From: Candidatus Magasanikiibacteriota bacterium
GTDB lineage: Bacteria; Patescibacteriota; Patescibacteriia; Magasanikbacterales; UBA922
Direction of reading: 5' to 3'
DNA: 64,000 nucleotides
Assembly: GCA_003518365.1 (NCBI GenBank)
Contig: DOYU01000022.1
Span: 24,095 to 88,094, forward strand
Below, piece by piece: positions 5,472 through 62,609 of the stretch. The notes beneath the pieces were generated by a model. The model ran no database searches and was not told the DNA's origin. It worked only from the letters and a program-made list of their open reading frames with translations. The position numbers were made by a program, and so were the translations under genes. The stretch's first letter is position 1; each line of letters begins with the position of its first letter.

Positions 5472-5515
5472 AACCAAACTGCCACATTTCCCCATGTTAT
5501 CCCTAGAAAGAGGGC

Positions 5516-5544
5516 TTGACGCATTGCGTTGTTTCCTATATAAT
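5516..5544 (+). promoter_or_regulatory. Near-consensus sigma70 promoter: TTGACG, 17-nt spacer, TATAAT, upstream of tuf
   Basis: TTGACG sits at 5516-5521 and TATAAT at 5539-5544, leaving a ~130-nt 5' UTR before tuf. Confidence 0.6.
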
Positions 5545-5675
5545 CGACACGCGTAACTTTTACGCCTTTTTTTCCGGCTCTGCGAAAGCAACACCGGATA
5601 GAATCTTAGATAAAACAAAGTATCATACCGCTGGACACAAATCTGTGCTGACCACTCAGTGCAGTGCGGTGAATA

Positions 5676-6878
5676 ATGTATGCCACTATGGCAGAGTTTA
5701 ATCGTTCCAAACCTCACGTGAATGTGGGTACCATTGGTCACGTAGACCATGGCAAAACAACGACCACTGCAGCGATCCTTGCTGTTGCTGGTGCACATGG
5801 GCTTGTTGCTCAGACAAAAGGTGTCGATGCTATCGACGCTGCACCAGAAGAAAAGGCACGTGGTATTACTATCGCGACTGCACACGTAGAATACGAGACA
5901 GATGCTCGTCACTACGCACACGTGGACTGTCCAGGCCATGCTGACTATGTCAAGAACATGATCACTGGTGCTGCACAGATGGACGGGGCTATCCTCGTTG
6001 TATCAGCTGCAGACGGCCCTATGCCGCAGACACGTGAACACATCTTGCTTGCTCGCCAGGTAGGTGTGCCTTACATCGTGGTCTTTTTGAACAAAGTCGA
6101 CCAAGTATCTGATCCAGAACTTATCGACCTCGTAGAAGAAGAAATCAAAGACCTCTTGAACAAATACGAATTCCCTGGAGACACCACACCTATCATCCGT
6201 GGGTCTGCACTCAAAGCTCTTGAAAATCCAAGCGATGACGCTGCAAGTAAGCCAATCATGGATCTTTTGAAGACGCTTGATGAATATATCCCAACACCTG
6301 TACGTGACCTCGACAAACCATTCTTCATGTCTATTGAAGACGTGTTCTCTATTGAAGGACGTGGTACGGTTGTTACTGGTCGTGTTGACCGTGGGTCAGT
6401 AAAAGTTGGAGAAGAAGTAGAAATTGTTGGTATGAAAGCTCAAACCAGTAAGACTACTGTGACTGGAGTTGAAATGTTCAACAAGAGTCTTGACCAAGCG
6501 CAAGCTGGTGACAACGCAGGTGTCCTCCTTCGTGGTACAAAGAAAGATGAAGTAGAGCGCGGACAAGTACTGGCAAAACCAGGTACTATTACGCCTCATA
6601 CTGAATTTGAAGCAGAAGTAGTTGCGCTCACCAAAGAAGAAGGTGGACGACACAAACCATTCTTCAATAAATACAAACCACAGTTTTACATCAACACAAC
6701 TGATGTAACAGGAGAAGTCACCTTGCCTGCTGGCACAGAAATGGTCATGCCTGGTGATACTGTGAATCTCAATATCAAACTCATCGTCCCAGTTGCGCTT
6801 GAAGAGAAGACTCGCTTTGCTATTCGTGAAGGTGGTCGAACCGTCGGCGCTGGTGTGGTAACGAAGATTATTCAATAA
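5676..6878 (+). CDS. tuf: Elongation factor Tu. A second in-frame ATG at 5688 gives the canonical MAEF...[19 protein letters not shown]-terminus.
   Basis: It carries the [10 protein letters not shown]-loop, DCPGHADY and NKVD motifs. Confidence 0.97.
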
Positions 6879-6887
6879 TAGAAAACC

Positions 6888-6928
6888 GGAGGAGAGCCGC
6901 ACTGCGGCTTTCCTCCTTTTCTTTCTTC
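6888..6928 (+). terminator. Rho-independent terminator after tuf: hairpin ggaggagagccgc...gcggctttcctcc followed by ttttctttctt
   Basis: Read directly from the sequence. Confidence 0.7.
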
Positions 6929-6937
6929 CGTTCTTTT

Positions 6938-7291
6938 ATGACAGCAGACAAGCACCCACAACAAGACGACGACACGCAGACCGCTGGATCAAAGCTTCGT
7001 ATTAAGATCCGCGCATACGATAATAAAATTATCGATATCGCTACAAAAACGATTATCGACACAGCTGAACGAAACGGTGCAAAAGTCGTCGGACCAGTTC
7101 CACTTCCTACTGAGACGGCAAAATTTAGTGTAAACCGTTCTACCTTTGTTCACAAACCTGCGCAAGAACAGTACGAAATGCGAACGCACAAGCGTCTGAT
7201 TGATATTATTTCACCTTCACCAAAAGCAATCGATGCTCTCATGAGTCTCAATTTGCCAGCGGGAGTTGATGTAGAGATCAAGATGAGTTAG
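6938..7291 (+). CDS. rpsJ: 30S ribosomal protein S10 with a ~15-aa N-terminal extension
   Basis: RIKIRAYDNKIID...GPVPLP is typical of uS10. Confidence 0.9.
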   Translation: MTADKHPQQDDDTQTAGSKLRIKIRAYDNKIIDIATKTIIDTAERNGAKVVGPVPLPTETAKFSVNRSTFVHKPAQEQYEMRTHKRLIDIISPSPKAIDALMSLNLPAGVDVEIKMS

Positions 7292-7328
7292 TTGCAAGTA
7301 GCAATGAACAACTAGCAATAAACAAAAA

Positions 7329-7353
7329 AATAGTCCGAAAGGGCTGTTTTTTT
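7329..7353 (+). terminator. Putative terminator after rpsJ: a short stem with a GAAA tetraloop (agtcc gaaa gggct) followed by T8
   Basis: It is preceded by A7, so it could act in both directions. Confidence 0.45.
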
Positions 7354-7367
7354 TGTTTGGTGGTAAT

Positions 7368-7478
7368 GCAAGCAACCCTACCTCCTGTCCTCCTTCCCTT
7401 AAAAAGGGAAAGAGGAACGTGCTAAGAAGGTTTCCTCCTCTTTTTAAGGGAAGGGTTAGGGTGGGGTTGCGTTGCCGC
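7368..7478. repeat. Copy 1 of a hairpin repeat element with terminal inverted repeats, which I call MITE/REP-like (TIR gcaaccctacc ... ggtggggttgc)
   Basis: It shares a 29-nt 5' block and the 3' TIR with the copy at 59139..59215. Confidence 0.7.
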
Positions 7479-7575
7479 AAGAAAAAAAAGTACAAAATCC
7501 AGCCTGCACGGAGCAATCGAACGAAGTGAGATGAAGCCGTGTGGATAACCTATCAATAAACCAACATATCTGCAC

Positions 7576-7604
7576 TTGACAGCCTAGAGAAAGTGAGATA
7601 CAAT
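7576..7604 (+). promoter_or_regulatory. Sigma70 promoter: TTGACA, 17-nt spacer, TACAAT, positioned to drive rplC and the downstream ribosomal genes
   Basis: TTGACA is at 7576-7581 and TACAAT at 7599-7604. Confidence 0.55.
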
Positions 7605-7804
7605 TGTGCCGCACTCAATACTTATATTTCTGTGCACGATAGCTTCATTCGCGGAGCAGATAAGATCTTCTCTTTCGACTCATTCAGTGGTTCAGGGAAA
7701 GAAAACATCTGTGGACGCCCGAAGATATCAGGAGAACACTACTGACACATTCCAATTTGTTACAAGCCTTCGCAAGTCCGCCTTGGGCGGATTATTCCAT
7801 AAGG

Positions 7805-7882
7805 CTAGAAAGAAAGGGTCCAATGCCGTTGTATTGATATCTTTCTTTCTAGTTTTTTGTTACCTTCCCGCATTGCGGGAAG
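7805..7882 (+). promoter_or_regulatory. Attenuator-like leader structure about 40 nt upstream of rplC: a 12-bp perfect stem (ctagaaagaaag...ctttctttctag), then T6, then a second 8-bp hairpin (cttcccgc att gcgggaag)
   Basis: Read directly from the sequence. By analogy only, it resembles the L4-mediated attenuation seen in S10 operon leaders. Confidence 0.4.
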
Positions 7883-7894
7883 CAATGACTGCAT

Positions 7895-8662
7895 ATGAAA
7901 TGTATTTTAGGAACAAAAAAAACAATGACACAGATCTTCCGTGAGGATGGTACTGTTGTTCCGGTTACTCGTGTACAGGCAGGTCCATGTGTTGTCACAC
8001 AAGTGAAAACGGTAAAGCGTGATGGTGTGAGTGCCCTACAGATTGGATTTGGTCCACAAAAAGCATTTCGCCTTACAAAACCACTCAAAGGACATTTGAA
8101 AGATATCGATGCTGTTAGACATATGCGTGATTTCCGCGCACCAGAGGATCATGGTCTTTCTCGAGGTGATAGTTTCACAGTCAGTATTTTTTCTGAGGGA
8201 GACCGTGTGGAAGTTGTCGGCGTATCAAAAGGAAAAGGATTCCAAGGTGTTGTCAAACGTCATGGATTTCGTGGGGCACCTGCAAGCCATGGTCATAAAG
8301 ATCAGCTTCGCATGCCTGGAAGTATTGGTGCCGGCGGTGTGCAGCGTGTATTCAAAGGCGTTCGTATGGGCGGACACATGGGAGACCAGCAAGTCACTGT
8401 GAAAAATTTGGAAATTGTTGGTATTGATGAAGAAAAAAATGAATTGTTGATCAAAGGCGCTGTTCCTGGTGCATTTGGTGGTTTATTGATAATTTCTACC
8501 GAAGAAGGAACCATTGAGGTTGCTCATGCTGCGGAAACAAAAGCGGATGCTACTGATGAGCTTGTTGACGATACAAAGAAAGAAGAACGCACCGAAGTTA
8601 CTCCTGAAACTAAGGTTGAGGAGACCCCTGAAGAAAAGAAAGAAGAAGCACCTGCTGCATAA
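7895..8662 (+). CDS. rplC: 50S ribosomal protein L3 with a ~50-aa acidic C-terminal tail
   Basis: MKCILGTKKTMTQIFREDG aligns with the uL3 N-terminus. Confidence 0.9.
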   Translation: MKCILGTKKTMTQIFREDGTVVPVTRVQAGPCVVTQVKTVKRDGVSALQIGFGPQKAFRLTKPLKGHLKDIDAVRHMRDFRAPEDHGLSRGDSFTVSIFSEGDRVEVVGVSKGKGFQGVVKRHGFRGAPASHGHKDQLRMPGSIGAGGVQRVFKGVRMGGHMGDQQVTVKNLEIVGIDEEKNELLIKGAVPGAFGGLLIISTEEGTIEVAHAAETKADATDELVDDTKKEERTEVTPETKVEETPEEKKEEAPAA

Positions 8663-10932: not shown

Positions 10933-10961
10933 TTGACAACCAGTAACAAACAGCGTATAGT
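10933..10961 (+). promoter_or_regulatory. Consensus sigma70 promoter: TTGACA, 17-nt spacer, TATAGT, internal to the ribosomal cluster upstream of rplV
   Basis: TTGACA is at 10933-10938 and TATAGT at 10956-10961. Confidence 0.5.
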
Positions 10962-41364: not shown

Positions 41365-41367
41365 ATG

Positions 41368-41451
41368 TGCCCTGGGAGAGACTCGAACTCTCATGATGTT
41401 GCCATCACTGGATTTTGAGTCCAGCGCGTCTACCAGTTCCACCACCAGGGC
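41368..41451 (-). tRNA. tRNA-Leu(CAA), 84 nt with a long variable arm and no encoded CCA
   Basis: Folds as a 7-bp acceptor stem GCCCTGG/CCAGGGC, anticodon loop CTCAAAA, long variable arm TGATGGCAACATCATG, and T-arm GAGAG TTCGAGT CTCTC. Confidence 0.85.
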
Positions 41452-41457
41452 ATGTAT

Positions 41458-41792: not shown

Positions 41793-41830
41793 TGAGTCCA
41801 GCGCGTCTACCAGTTCCACCACCAGGGCAT
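41793..41830 (-). repeat. A 38-nt exact duplicate of the tRNA-Leu 5' half (2 nt of 5' flank plus tRNA nucleotides 1-36, ending inside the anticodon)
   Basis: 41793..41830 is identical to 41416..41453. Confidence 0.85.
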
Positions 41831-52077: not shown

Positions 52078-52613
52078 GTGATCCAGTCAGTAATATGAGT
52101 ATGCGCATCTTCTGCCATTTTTTTTATTGCTCGTTTTTCGAACATGCTAAATTTTCCGAGGACAAAGTTCACTGTATCTTCCATTTGGCGAGGATGATCT
52201 GATGCAATGCCGAGTCGAATGCGAGTAAAATTTTGTGTGCCAAGATGTTCTATAATTGATTTAACGCCGTTGTGTCCCGCTGCTCCTCTGTCTTTTTGTA
52301 CTTTGATCGTGCCGAGTGCAATATCCTTTTCATCATGTAAGACGATGAGGTCTTTTGTTGGGTCGAGTGTATAGTAATTGATCAGCAACCCTACCGACTG
52401 CCCTGAGTTGTTCATGAAAGTCATTGGTTTTACGAGCATGATAGATTCATTCACAATAGATCCTTCGCTTATTTCGGCATTAAATTTTTTACTGAGTGAC
52501 CATTTTTTCATGCCTGGGAGCTTTTGGAGTTCATCCAACACAAGAAACCCAGCGTTGTGTCGAGTTTTTTCGTATTGTTTCCCTGGATTCCCTAATCCTA
52601 CGATGAGCTTCAT
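52074..52613 (-). CDS. pth: Peptidyl-tRNA hydrolase
   Basis: MKLIVGLGNPG...TRHNAGF. Confidence 0.9.
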   Translation of the reverse strand: MKLIVGLGNPGKQYEKTRHNAGFLVLDELQKLPGMKKWSLSKKFNAEISEGSIVNESIMLVKPMTFMNNSGQSVGLLINYYTLDPTKDLIVLHDEKDIALGTIKVQKDRGAAGHNGVKSIIEHLGTQNFTRIRLGIASDHPRQMEDTVNFVLGKFSMFEKRAIKKMAEDAHTHITDWIT

Positions 52614-59138: not shown

Positions 59139-59215
59139 GCAACCCTACCTTCTGTCCTCCTTCCCTTATAAAATATTCCTTCCCCTTTTTAAGGGGAGGG
59201 CTAGGGTAGGGTTGC
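59139..59215. repeat. Copy 2 of the MITE/REP-like hairpin element with terminal inverted repeats (perfect 11-bp TIR gcaaccctacc ... ggtagggttgc)
   Basis: It shares the 29-nt 5' block gcaaccctacctyctgtcctccttccctt and the 3' TIR with 7368..7478. Confidence 0.7.
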
Positions 59216-59229
59216 GTGGCTAACAGTCA

Positions 59230-60692: not shown

Positions 60693-62609
60693 TCACTCCT
60701 CTTCAACAGATTGACTTGATACATTTGGGCATGTGGATTCTTGCCACATCACGGCATTCACTCTGTTAAAGCAATCTTTATTTGTTTCGGACTCTATATA
60801 TTCTGTTTTCCCAGTATCATTTGATATTTCACAACATCCTTTTGCATTATCTGCTTTTTTTAGTGAGTAATCTTGTTGAGCAAGTTGTGTTGCAATTTTT
60901 TCTGACCATTGCTTATTTTTGCATCCATGAACAGTAGAGTCTAATCCTATTTTACTATAATCAAAATTCCGTGCATCTGCTCTGTTATTATCCACTTGGC
61001 AATGATTCAAAATACTTCCATCCGTTCGCGAGATGCTCGTCATAGGAACTACTTTTGAAATAATTTTATTTATAGCATCATATTGTTCTTGGGTATATGT
61101 GCATTTCGCACTACAGGTGGCATCTCTTACACATGCCGTTCCTGTGCTACATTCATCTGCAATGCTCAGATCTATGCCAATAGAAAATGGATTTATGGTG
61201 CCTGCATGATACGCTCTCCTGCGTATGTCTACGGCTTCAATAATGGTCCCATCTCGTTTTACCACAAAATGCGTTGAGAGTTGTCTCGATTTTAGTGTAT
61301 TTACGGTTGCATCGATTCCATTGACGAGTTTATCTCGACTACCTTCATGAAGAATAATATATCGGACACTTTTGAGGGAACGATTGCCACAGGAAAATGC
61401 ATCAAGTGCATCGAACTGTGCTATGCCAAGTCCTAAACTTTGAGATGCAGGTTTTCTCCCTACACATGGTGTAGAGACTGTTGATGCCGTTTCTTCTTCT
61501 GCACTGTGCTCTGAGAGAGGGATGCTTTGGACTATCATGACACGCAGATTTCTAAAATTTACCAATTCTGGGTTGATAAGGTAGAGTAACGCATAGGATG
61601 TTGTGGCAATAAAGAGACCAATGATTGCCTGTGTGATATGTTTTTTGGCAGTAGTAATTTTGTCACTCTGTCCTGATGATGCAATCCATAAGAGACCTGC
61701 ATACATAATCATGACTACGGAGGCAACCCCAATTGCTATGATACCGTACTTGTATATTGAAGCTATATATTCTCCTAAATAGGGGAAATACACATACGTT
61801 GCTCCTCTTTCGTCTGTTGTTCGTTTCAGTTTGCTAGGATTTGTGAAGGATACCCCCGGGATAGTAATTTTGAGACTGGGTGCTTGAATGAGTTTATTCA
61901 ATGCGGCTGCATTGAGCTGGATCGCGGCTGAAGTGTCTGTAAGAATATCGAGGCCGCAGCTTTCCGTGACTGGTCCGGGAAATTTTGAGTTGACTTGGTT
62001 ATCATATTGACAATAGTTTAGATTACCTGATCCACAAGTTCCATCGTTACATTCCCATTTGGTAGGATCTTGCCCCGGTGTCCCATATGCTTGTGAACAA
62101 TCTTCCTTACCAGTCGATCCGACTGCTGCCGCACTACACACACAATAATTTCTTTGGTCGATAGCGCTTTTTTCACAAACATCCGTGCTGCAATCGTTAT
62201 CATCAGTACATATTTGTCCAATAGAGAGTTTGGTCTGCTGCTCGGCTGCCTCATCATTGTATTGGCAGTAATTTAAGTTGCCTGTTGTAATTTTTCCATC
62301 ATTACATTCCCATTTGGTAGGATCTTGTCCCGGTGTCCCATATGCTTGAGCACATTCTTGGTCACCTGTCGACCCGATTGCTGCCGCACTACACACACAA
62401 TATTTTTTTCCATCGAGATAATTTTCCTCACAAACATCAGTACTGCAATTATCATTATCAGTACATATCTGTCCAATAGGAAGTTTTGCCGGCTCTGCTT
62501 GTCCGTATGCTATGTGAGGCAAGGAAAAGAGTCCCAAAAGGAATGGAAAAACAAATAAACATGTTGATACATATATTCTGCGTTTCATAGACCAAGCACT
62601 ATTTCCCAT
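60693..62609 (-). CDS. Secreted, membrane-anchored protein with a signal peptide, two tandem ~85-aa Cys-rich repeats, a hydrophobic anchor region and a C-terminal N-acetylmuramoyl-L-alanine amidase (Amidase_2/PGRP-like) domain
   Basis: The repeats LPIGQICTDNDNCSTDVCE... and LSIGQICTDDNDCSTDVCE..., and the amidase motifs ILHEGS...HFVVKRDG...AYHAG. Confidence 0.65.
   Translation of the reverse strand: MGNSAWSMKRRIYVSTCLFVFPFLLGLFSLPHIAYGQAEPAKLPIGQICTDNDNCSTDVCEENYLDGKKYCVCSAAAIGSTGDQECAQAYGTPGQDPTKWECNDGKITTGNLNYCQYNDEAAEQQTKLSIGQICTDDNDCSTDVCEKSAIDQRNYCVCSAAAVGSTGKEDCSQAYGTPGQDPTKWECNDGTCGSGNLNYCQYDNQVNSKFPGPVTESCGLDILTDTSAAIQLNAAALNKLIQAPSLKITIPGVSFTNPSKLKRTTDERGATYVYFPYLGEYIASIYKYGIIAIGVASVVMIMYAGLLWIASSGQSDKITTAKKHITQAIIGLFIATTSYALLYLINPELVNFRNLRVMIVQSIPLSEHSAEEETASTVSTPCVGRKPASQSLGLGIAQFDALDAFSCGNRSLKSVRYIILHEGSRDKLVNGIDATVNTLKSRQLSTHFVVKRDGTIIEAVDIRRRAYHAGTINPFSIGIDLSIADECSTGTACVRDATCSAKCTYTQEQYDAINKIISKVVPMTSISRTDGSILNHCQVDNNRADARNFDYSKIGLDSTVHGCKNKQWSEKIATQLAQQDYSLKKADNAKGCCEISNDTGKTEYIESETNKDCFNRVNAVMWQESTCPNVSSQSVEEE

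Follow-up and report, generated by a model that had tools for sequence, protein, structure and literature searches.

A conserved promoter and probable attenuator leader between rpsJ and rplC in a Magasanikbacteria S10 operon

What occupies the space between rpsJ and rplC in the S10 operon of a patescibacterium? The locus considered here lies in contig DOYU01000022.1 of assembly GCA_003518365.1, from a Candidatus Magasanikiibacteriota bacterium, of which a stretch of 64,000 nucleotides (nt) was analysed (hereafter the window). A sequence-only reading of this stretch had placed 603 base pairs (bp) between the two genes, which is correct (7292-7894), and the identical 603-nt gap is found at the same locus in ten near-identical contigs. 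The accompanying statement that rpsJ abuts rplC with only a few bp between them in most bacteria was too strong: among 80 listed L3 loci of GTDB species representatives, found through the L3 protein and belonging mostly to other phyla, the gap is 12-100 nt in most phyla, and it is 32 nt in Escherichia coli. Nor is the large gap, real as it is, unique to this genome, since the gaps of its nearest relatives are enlarged too (about 200-400 nt at L011-L019 and L058, and about 470 nt at L094; L numbers denote the loci compared).

The gap is bipartite, with a species-specific 5' part (7292-7530) and a conserved 3' part (7576-7894). The latter is, with high confidence, a conserved promoter followed by a structured attenuator leader. 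This element is a new, non-homologous member of the class of ribosomal protein operon leaders and attenuators, and what sets it apart is where it stands, dividing the canonical S10 operon behind rpsJ. Analogy with known systems makes autoregulation of the leader by a ribosomal protein encoded in the operon a somewhat better than even prospect. Sequence reading and scans recovered every feature that the earlier reading had listed (terminators, repeat, promoter and hairpins), and its proposal of a separate promoter and attenuator-type leader for rplC and the downstream genes is supported by the conservation of promoter, structured domain and terminator in 55 distinct relatives. The conserved part and the gene that it precedes are made up as follows.

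7576..7604, forward strand: sigma70-type promoter TTGACA-17-TACAAT, with the -35 element at 7576-7581, the -10 element at 7599-7604 and 11/12 consensus matches
7642..7727, forward strand: leader domain 1, the outer helix P0 around module A, assessed by cognate versus non-cognate duplex energy
7653..7715, forward strand: module A, with helix P1 (7656-7661/7707-7712), the internal loop AAGA 7662-7665 / AAAC 7703-7706 and helix P2 (7666-7702)
7730..7736, forward strand: purine-rich element AGGAGAA, resembling a Shine-Dalgarno (SD) sequence, at a fixed distance 3' of module A and with no start codon after it
7765..7806, forward strand: helix P3, AGCCUU 7765-7770 / AAGGCU 7801-7806, enclosing a hairpin at 7777-7791
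7805..7858, forward strand: leader terminator (attenuator), a 12-bp stem 7805-7816/7841-7852 followed by U6 at 7853-7858
7859..7889, forward strand: module C, in which GUUA 7859-7862 pairs with UGAC 7886-7889 around a stem 7864-7871/7875-7882, with CAAUGAC at 7883-7889
7895..8662, forward strand: rplC, encoding uL3 (255 amino acids, C-terminal tail rich in K and E), start MKCILGTKKTMTQIF

The near-consensus promoter had been recognized in the sequence-only reading, and comparison strengthens it: exact TTGACA-N17-TAnnnT occurs in 49 of the 51 relatives' leaders that have enough upstream sequence, and in many relatives it begins a few nt after the rpsJ stop codon. Seven promoter-like sites with at least 11/12 matches are present in the window, against about 2 expected. 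Transcription is predicted to start at about 7611, giving a leader of about 285 nt; in relatives, predicted start and AUG are 207-408 nt apart, with a median of 288. Upstream of the promoter lies a further box.

7540..7548, forward strand: DnaA-box-like TGTGGATAA, 27 nt upstream of the -35 element of the rplC leader

The perfect TTATCCACA/TGTGGATAA box has this single occurrence in 64 kb, where 0.49 would be expected, and the same box is found 25-36 nt upstream of the -35 element in eight close relatives. Boxes of the related form TTATCCCCA/TTATCCCTA precede the rrn promoters of relatives (L218, L195, L168) and the tuf promoter of the window (about 5497-5505), and the DnaA-like box may be a shared upstream element of promoters for the translation apparatus.

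The relatives on which the comparison rests were reached in two ways. The gaps of L011, L012 and L013 hold the same elements in the same order as the window, TTGACA-17-TAnAnT, yArAUAAGAU-hairpin-AAAACAUyUr and GGCUAGAAG...CUUCUAG-U6, and further contigs reached through three more Magasanikbacteria uL3 proteins (66-82% identical) hold the same elements. The relatives L011, L012, L013, L091, L094 and L097, which were found through the L3 protein and hence independently of the leader sequence, all carry the promoter, module A and a GCUAGAAG...CUUCUAG-U terminator. A metagenome pattern scan (GCTAGAAGN{18,48}CTTCTAGTTTTT) yielded at least 120 stretches; in 58 of the 120 stretches listed, an L3 gene starting at residue 1 lies 9-172 nt past the U tract. 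After duplicate removal, 58 leaders were analysed. L3 identities in the family span 50-83%, and the rplC start at 7895 agrees with tblastn matches of 58 relatives, which begin at residue 1 of its product.

The centre of the leader is module A. A covariance model built from a 44-sequence alignment gives one match per rplC-leader locus and at least 62 matches in all, at least 55 of them distinct, in Magasanikbacteria-like genomes and metagenomes; it has no other match in the 64-kb window, in the L3 loci of other phyla or in the pattern matches not followed by L3. When these 55 are aligned, standard pairs make up 91.4% of cells, compared with 76.4% in shuffled alignments (none of 500 shuffles attains the observed figure) and at most 49% when the partners are slid; three pairs in P1 and another three in P2 are altered in both partners (UA:30/CG:23, AU:34/GC:18, CG:26/UA:26). 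In the same set the 5'-AAGA/5'-AAAC internal loop (4x4, purine-rich) and the adjacent A-U and U-A pairs are invariant. P2 varies from the 7-nt CCUAAGG to 96 nt in the set found by regular expression and is longer still in L168; since it can shrink to 7 nt, the functional core is a hairpin of about 30 nt with a 4x4 purine loop. When 35 full leaders were folded together with RNAalifold, the predicted structure contained the terminator, P1 and the base of P2. The leader is a structured, covarying RNA in the 5' untranslated region (UTR) of a ribosomal protein operon, one of the generic features of an autoregulatory ribosomal protein leader. The alignment across relatives that the earlier reading had proposed has in this way shown conservation with covariation of P1 and P2, and its suggestion of a structured RNA is supported by a covarying domain conserved upstream of rplC. 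Hairpins of the P1/AAAGAU/AAAAC type with another P1 sequence are present in the distant relatives L014, L016 and L149, where the model misses them at expectation values (E) below 1, so the boundary of the family is not fixed. A leader peptide or small open reading frame (ORF) was considered and rejected: all three length classes modulo 3 are represented among the P2 segments, and the longest ORF per leader has a median of 21 codons.

Module A is embedded in further structure. The flanks that form P0 have a duplex energy of -10.65 kcal/mol with their cognate partners versus -5.95 kcal/mol with non-cognate ones (p 5e-18). P3 (AGCC/GGCU plus variable pairs) is more weakly supported than P0; C7805 and U7806 belong both to P3 and to the terminator stem, and one might speculate that competition for these two nucleotides modulates how closely the hairpin abuts the U tract. 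Between the two helices, 16-26 nt past module A, stands a purine-rich element that reads AGGAGAA, GAGGUGA or AGAAAGGA according to lineage. It complements the canonical 16S tail (CCUCC) seen in relatives; its position is conserved, and its match to the anti-SD sequence is weakly above that of shuffles (5.5 versus 4.9 nt).

This element bears on the idea that the leader is a riboswitch-like or factor-dependent sensor operating without a ribosomal protein, whether of an alarmone, of a Nus complex containing uS10/NusE or of a 30S subunit docked on the SD-like element. An SD-like purine stretch at a fixed position, with no start codon and with a canonical CCUCC in the 16S tail, would suit such a sensor, as would the location of rpsJ/NusE directly upstream and the need of the terminator for some override. 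The conserved nucleotides are few, however, and form a simple hairpin instead of a multi-helix junction, no Rfam riboswitch or other family matches, and the boxA-like sequences of relatives' rrn leaders are missing from the rplC leader; we regard this kind of sensor as rather improbable. Searches of the whole window with Rfam 15 at the gathering threshold returned two tRNAs only, and between 6800 and 8000 with E up to 10 the only matches were spurious microRNA-type hairpins on the palindromic repeat of the 5' part. A boxA/Nus leader was tried as a specific candidate and rejected, the motifs of relatives' rrn leaders (GAUCAUUACAA / CUUUAACAAUU) sharing no k-mers with rplC leaders. Those boxA-like motifs come from relatives in which the tuf-rpsJ-leader-rplC unit is preceded, at a distance of 3-4 kb, by a 16S rRNA gene (L218, L195, L172, L168, L012, L011, L123, L013); the window has no rRNA gene. 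Slightly less probable again is the proposal that module A senses a new regulatory input and is not a ribosomal protein operator, acting as a small-molecule (alarmone-type) or ion aptamer or as a docking site for uS10 (NusE), a Nus factor or the 30S subunit that overrides the attenuator. Were module A a sensor of this kind, it would place the main ribosomal protein operon of bacteria of the candidate phyla radiation (CPR), organisms that lack most classical regulators, under growth-rate control of a new class.

The case for an attenuator leader turns on the terminator. As the earlier reading had described, a perfect 12-bp hairpin runs into six T residues (7853-7858); the hairpin has a folding energy of -23.4 kcal/mol (z-score -5.2), and the whole has the form of an intrinsic terminator, a stable hairpin followed by a U tract, placed downstream of the promoter, upstream of the first ORF and on their strand. 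Because the distance from terminator to AUG falls to as little as 9 nt, no second promoter fits and rplC must be transcribed through the terminator. The anatomy thus shows that the terminator acts as an attenuator, since polymerase must pass it to reach rplC.

The same segment might instead be a stand-alone small RNA gene of about 250 nt, from promoter to terminator, that acts in trans, with rplC expressed by read-through. The consensus promoter, the efficient-looking terminator and the conserved structure are what such a gene would show. We judge it improbable nonetheless, given that the unit is always directly upstream of rplC, co-oriented and in one copy per locus, that no alternative rplC promoter fits downstream, and that module C ties the leader to the rplC start site. 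The roles of small RNA and leader are mutually compatible. Module C contains the second hairpin that the sequence-only reading had noted immediately upstream of rplC (stem 7864-7871/7875-7882), and its 3' arm holds the SD-like GGGAAG. GUUA follows the U tract in 37/52 relatives' leaders, and a hairpin ending in a CAAUGAC-like sequence lies within 45 nt of the AUG in 29/52. The rplC AUG itself has no SD sequence 5-10 nt upstream, again as the earlier reading had it.

Taken together, these parts suggest how the attenuator leader may work. The segment 7576-7894 would provide a dedicated transcription start for rplC-rplD-rplW-rplB and later genes, with initiation at about 7611 producing a structured leader of about 285 nt that would comprise the P0-P1-P2 hairpin, P3 stacked on the terminator and the start-codon hairpin. 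The AAGA/AAAC internal loop is most likely the site at which a trans-acting factor, probably a protein, is recognized. By analogy with uL4 and the S10 operon of E. coli and with bL20 and infC of Bacillus subtilis, a ribosomal protein encoded downstream and present in free excess could bind module A. Such binding would favour termination, or pausing, at the attenuator and might in addition block translation initiation through module C, the outcome being a ribosomal protein output matched to the supply of rRNA. The gene rpsJ (uS10/NusE) would remain outside this control and be expressed with tuf. Among ligands, the analogy makes uL4 the leading candidate, though short of an even chance, followed by uL3, another protein and, last, a ligand that is not a protein.

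Several observations weigh against autoregulation by a ribosomal protein or soften its support. The base of the terminator is conserved as GGCUAGAA.../...UUCUAG, but in the metagenome set, which supplied most members of the family, this conservation arises by construction, the search pattern having fixed that base, and it is independent only in 7 protein-ascertained loci. Regular-expression and topology scans of E. coli 16S and 23S rRNA and of the 16S rRNA of four relatives gave no convincing rRNA mimic of module A, and the module A model run with filters off had no match in the E. coli rrn operon. Short identities do occur, one of AAACAUCU to E. coli 23S 195-202 (H11-13 hairpin, loop context) and one of AGAUAAG to the 5' strand of 23S H97 with GAAAC on the 3' strand (GAG-AUAA-GUGCU...AGCAC-GAAA-CUU; 7-8 nt), both of chance-expected length and in a different structural register from module A, and so no more than leads. 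In autoregulatory ribosomal protein leaders, mimicry of the protein's site on rRNA is frequent though not obligatory. Folds of the nascent leader up to the terminator loop contained no conserved antiterminator; the AGCC:GGCU pairing of P3 alone recurs, and it touches only the first nucleotides of the terminator 5' arm, the rest of which has no conserved partner. High read-through of a 12-20-bp hairpin followed by U6 is therefore left without an explanation. Finally, tertiary contacts of the RNA or recognition by a non-ribosomal factor would account equally well for the invariant nucleotides of the loop.

Some of the same observations lend themselves to a simpler account, that of a constitutive, unregulated 5' UTR in which the promoter is real, the hairpins only stabilize or process the mRNA, and no ligand is sensed. 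The terminator would then insulate the unit or set a fixed partial read-through. Besides the lack of an antiterminator in the nascent-leader folds and of an rRNA mimic in E. coli 16S/23S and relatives' 16S, this account can draw on other internal promoter-like sites in the cluster, such as that at 10933. It is unlikely all the same, in either form it might take for the terminator. Over L3 identities of 50-83%, no change is seen in the eight loop nucleotides or in the A-U pairs beside them, while the helices covary and P2 varies, a combination typical of a specific recognition site and not of a generic stabilizer; and it is hard to see why, without control, a strong terminator should stand directly ahead of genes that are essential and highly expressed. 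The promoter-like site in question (10933-10961, TTGACA-17-TATAGT, 11/12) falls exactly into the interval from the rpsS stop (10932) to the rplV start (10983), and the cluster may have further internal promoters.

How does the leader compare with systems already described? Work of Zengel and Lindahl reportedly established the E. coli S10-operon leader as a uL4-responsive attenuator and translational operator. Its hairpins are HD, upstream and required for the action of the protein, HE, the terminator hairpin with its U run, and HG, at the first start codon; they couple protein- and NusA-dependent termination with translational repression and use no classical antiterminator (PMC3616713, Fu et al. 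2013, with an alignment; PMC10931766). The two leaders are alike in controlling the rplC, rplD, rplW, rplB block, and the HD/HE/HG layout is paralleled by the module A hairpin, the terminator and the start-codon hairpin described here, both without a classical antiterminator. They differ in that the E. coli leader lies upstream of rpsJ, whereas the present one comes after rpsJ and before rplC, has a promoter to itself and leaves uS10 outside its control, and in that they share no homology, the module A model with filters off having no match on the E. coli leader locus (L221). Membership in the E. coli type of L4-interacting S10 leader is accordingly rejected on position and on HD/HE/HG homology. 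A second comparison is offered by L4-Archaeoglobi (Eckert and Weinberg 2020), the sole ribosomal protein leader candidate previously listed before rplC (PMC7247131). It too lies directly upstream of rplC-rplD-rplW-rplB, but it is archaeal, has another architecture and has no bacterial intrinsic terminator described, and Rfam gave no match to it in 6800-8000 with E up to 10. The B. subtilis infC-rpmI-rplT leader, subject to bL20-dependent transcription attenuation (PMC1865079), offers a parallel to the rplC leader: about 200 nt long, it serves a ribosomal protein operon and links the binding of a protein to an intrinsic terminator. It belongs to another operon and protein, and neither its alternative long-range pairing nor its 23S mimic was found here.

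The uL4-responsive leader of the E. coli type is confined to some Gammaproteobacteria, so that how most bacteria balance their largest ribosomal protein operon is an open question. Cis-regulatory RNAs of the CPR (Patescibacteria) are essentially uncharted, and a literature search found no paper joining CPR or Patescibacteria with ribosomal leaders or riboswitches. The present element offers a concrete candidate that is also widespread: at least 55 distinct sequences represent it, it has a minimal hairpin version of 30 nt (GUAAAU-AAGAU-CCUAAGG-AAAAC-AUUUAC, at L176/L152) and its invariant loop is defined. The module A alignment is suitable for submission as a new RNA family. It would also represent an evolutionary re-wiring in which uS10/NusE was removed from the regulated unit and is expressed with EF-Tu.

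The 5' part of the gap and the junction that precedes rpsJ are of a different character. Their features, with the genes that frame them, are listed below.

6878, forward strand: end of tuf
6888..6926, forward strand: tuf-distal hairpin with T-rich tail, 13 bp, -26 kcal/mol, z-score -7.3
6938..7291, forward strand: rpsJ, encoding uS10 (117 amino acids; PF00338)
7324..7354, forward strand: rpsJ intrinsic terminator, consisting of an A-tract, AGUCC-GAAA-GGGCU and T8
7368..7478, no strand assigned: palindromic repeat (an insertion resembling repetitive extragenic palindromic (REP) elements or miniature inverted-repeat transposable elements (MITE)), 111 nt, -59.5 kcal/mol

The terminator after tuf that the sequence-only reading had reported is present: its GC-rich stem spans 6888-6916, and the hairpin occupies most of the 59-nt gap between tuf and rpsJ (6879-6937). 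The hairpin takes up nearly all of that gap and leaves no space for a promoter, and rpsJ expression must depend on read-through of this terminator-like structure. The gap also contains no SD sequence for rpsJ. At the other end of tuf, the promoter TTGACG-17-TATAAT (11/12 matches, within 5516-5575) is followed directly by a hairpin (5551-5565) with T7, about 110 nt before the gene, and this hairpin and its T tract may form a second attenuator-type leader.

Downstream of rpsJ, the GAAA-tetraloop terminator with T8 was likewise identified correctly. Its stem pairs 7332-7336 with 7341-7345 and is extended by the A tract, the T8 lies at 7347-7354, and the folding energy is -17.3 kcal/mol (z-score -6.9). 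It is species-specific, and most relatives are without it. The hairpin repeat element also exists as described, a palindrome with a single further true copy in the window (59139-59220, intergenic); an apparent third copy at 52385 is a mere 17-nt match within an ORF. It resembles REP/MITE-like repeats in being a long imperfect palindrome, intergenic and repeated, and differs from them in having only two copies in 64 kb; it is not part of the conserved leader. The rpsJ terminator and the palindromic repeat are species-specific additions outside the conserved design.

Directly upstream of the rplC promoter of Magasanikbacteria CG1_02_41_34, the closest relative, whose uL3 is 82% identical, lies the C-terminal end of an IS200/IS605-like transposase ORF (L091 1-230, L092 1-100). 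It occupies the expected position of rpsJ, which indicates that the spacer before the promoter tolerates insertions. It is against this background that the enlarged gap might be dismissed as non-functional debris of mobile elements, an explanation with next to no likelihood. A repeat with a second copy in the window and a transposase end upstream of the promoter in the closest relative are in keeping with debris, but they account for 7292-7530 only. For 7576-7894 the idea is refuted by the comparative data, that segment being conserved with covariation in 55 distinct sequences.

The remaining observations concern the surrounding genes. Past rplC the gene order is rplD, rplW, rplB, rpsS, rplV and rpsC. 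The uL3 and uS10 proteins of the window are identical to those in the Candidatus Magasanikbacteria bacterium GW2011_GWD2_43_18 / GWC2_42_27 records. The uL3 proteins of the clade, 221-327 amino acids long, carry a K/E-rich C-terminal extension of 30-90 amino acids (8500-8659 in the window) that is missing from uL3 of most other bacteria (about 200-210 amino acids). Further along the window, a 38-nt segment (41416-41453) is repeated exactly at 41793-41830, 377 nt away, and overlaps one end of tRNA-Leu(CAA) (41367-41451, minus strand); the duplication resembles that of an att-like site or a partial copy of a tRNA. Finally, 62005-62494 consists of two tandem copies, 80% identical, of a 235-nt unit.

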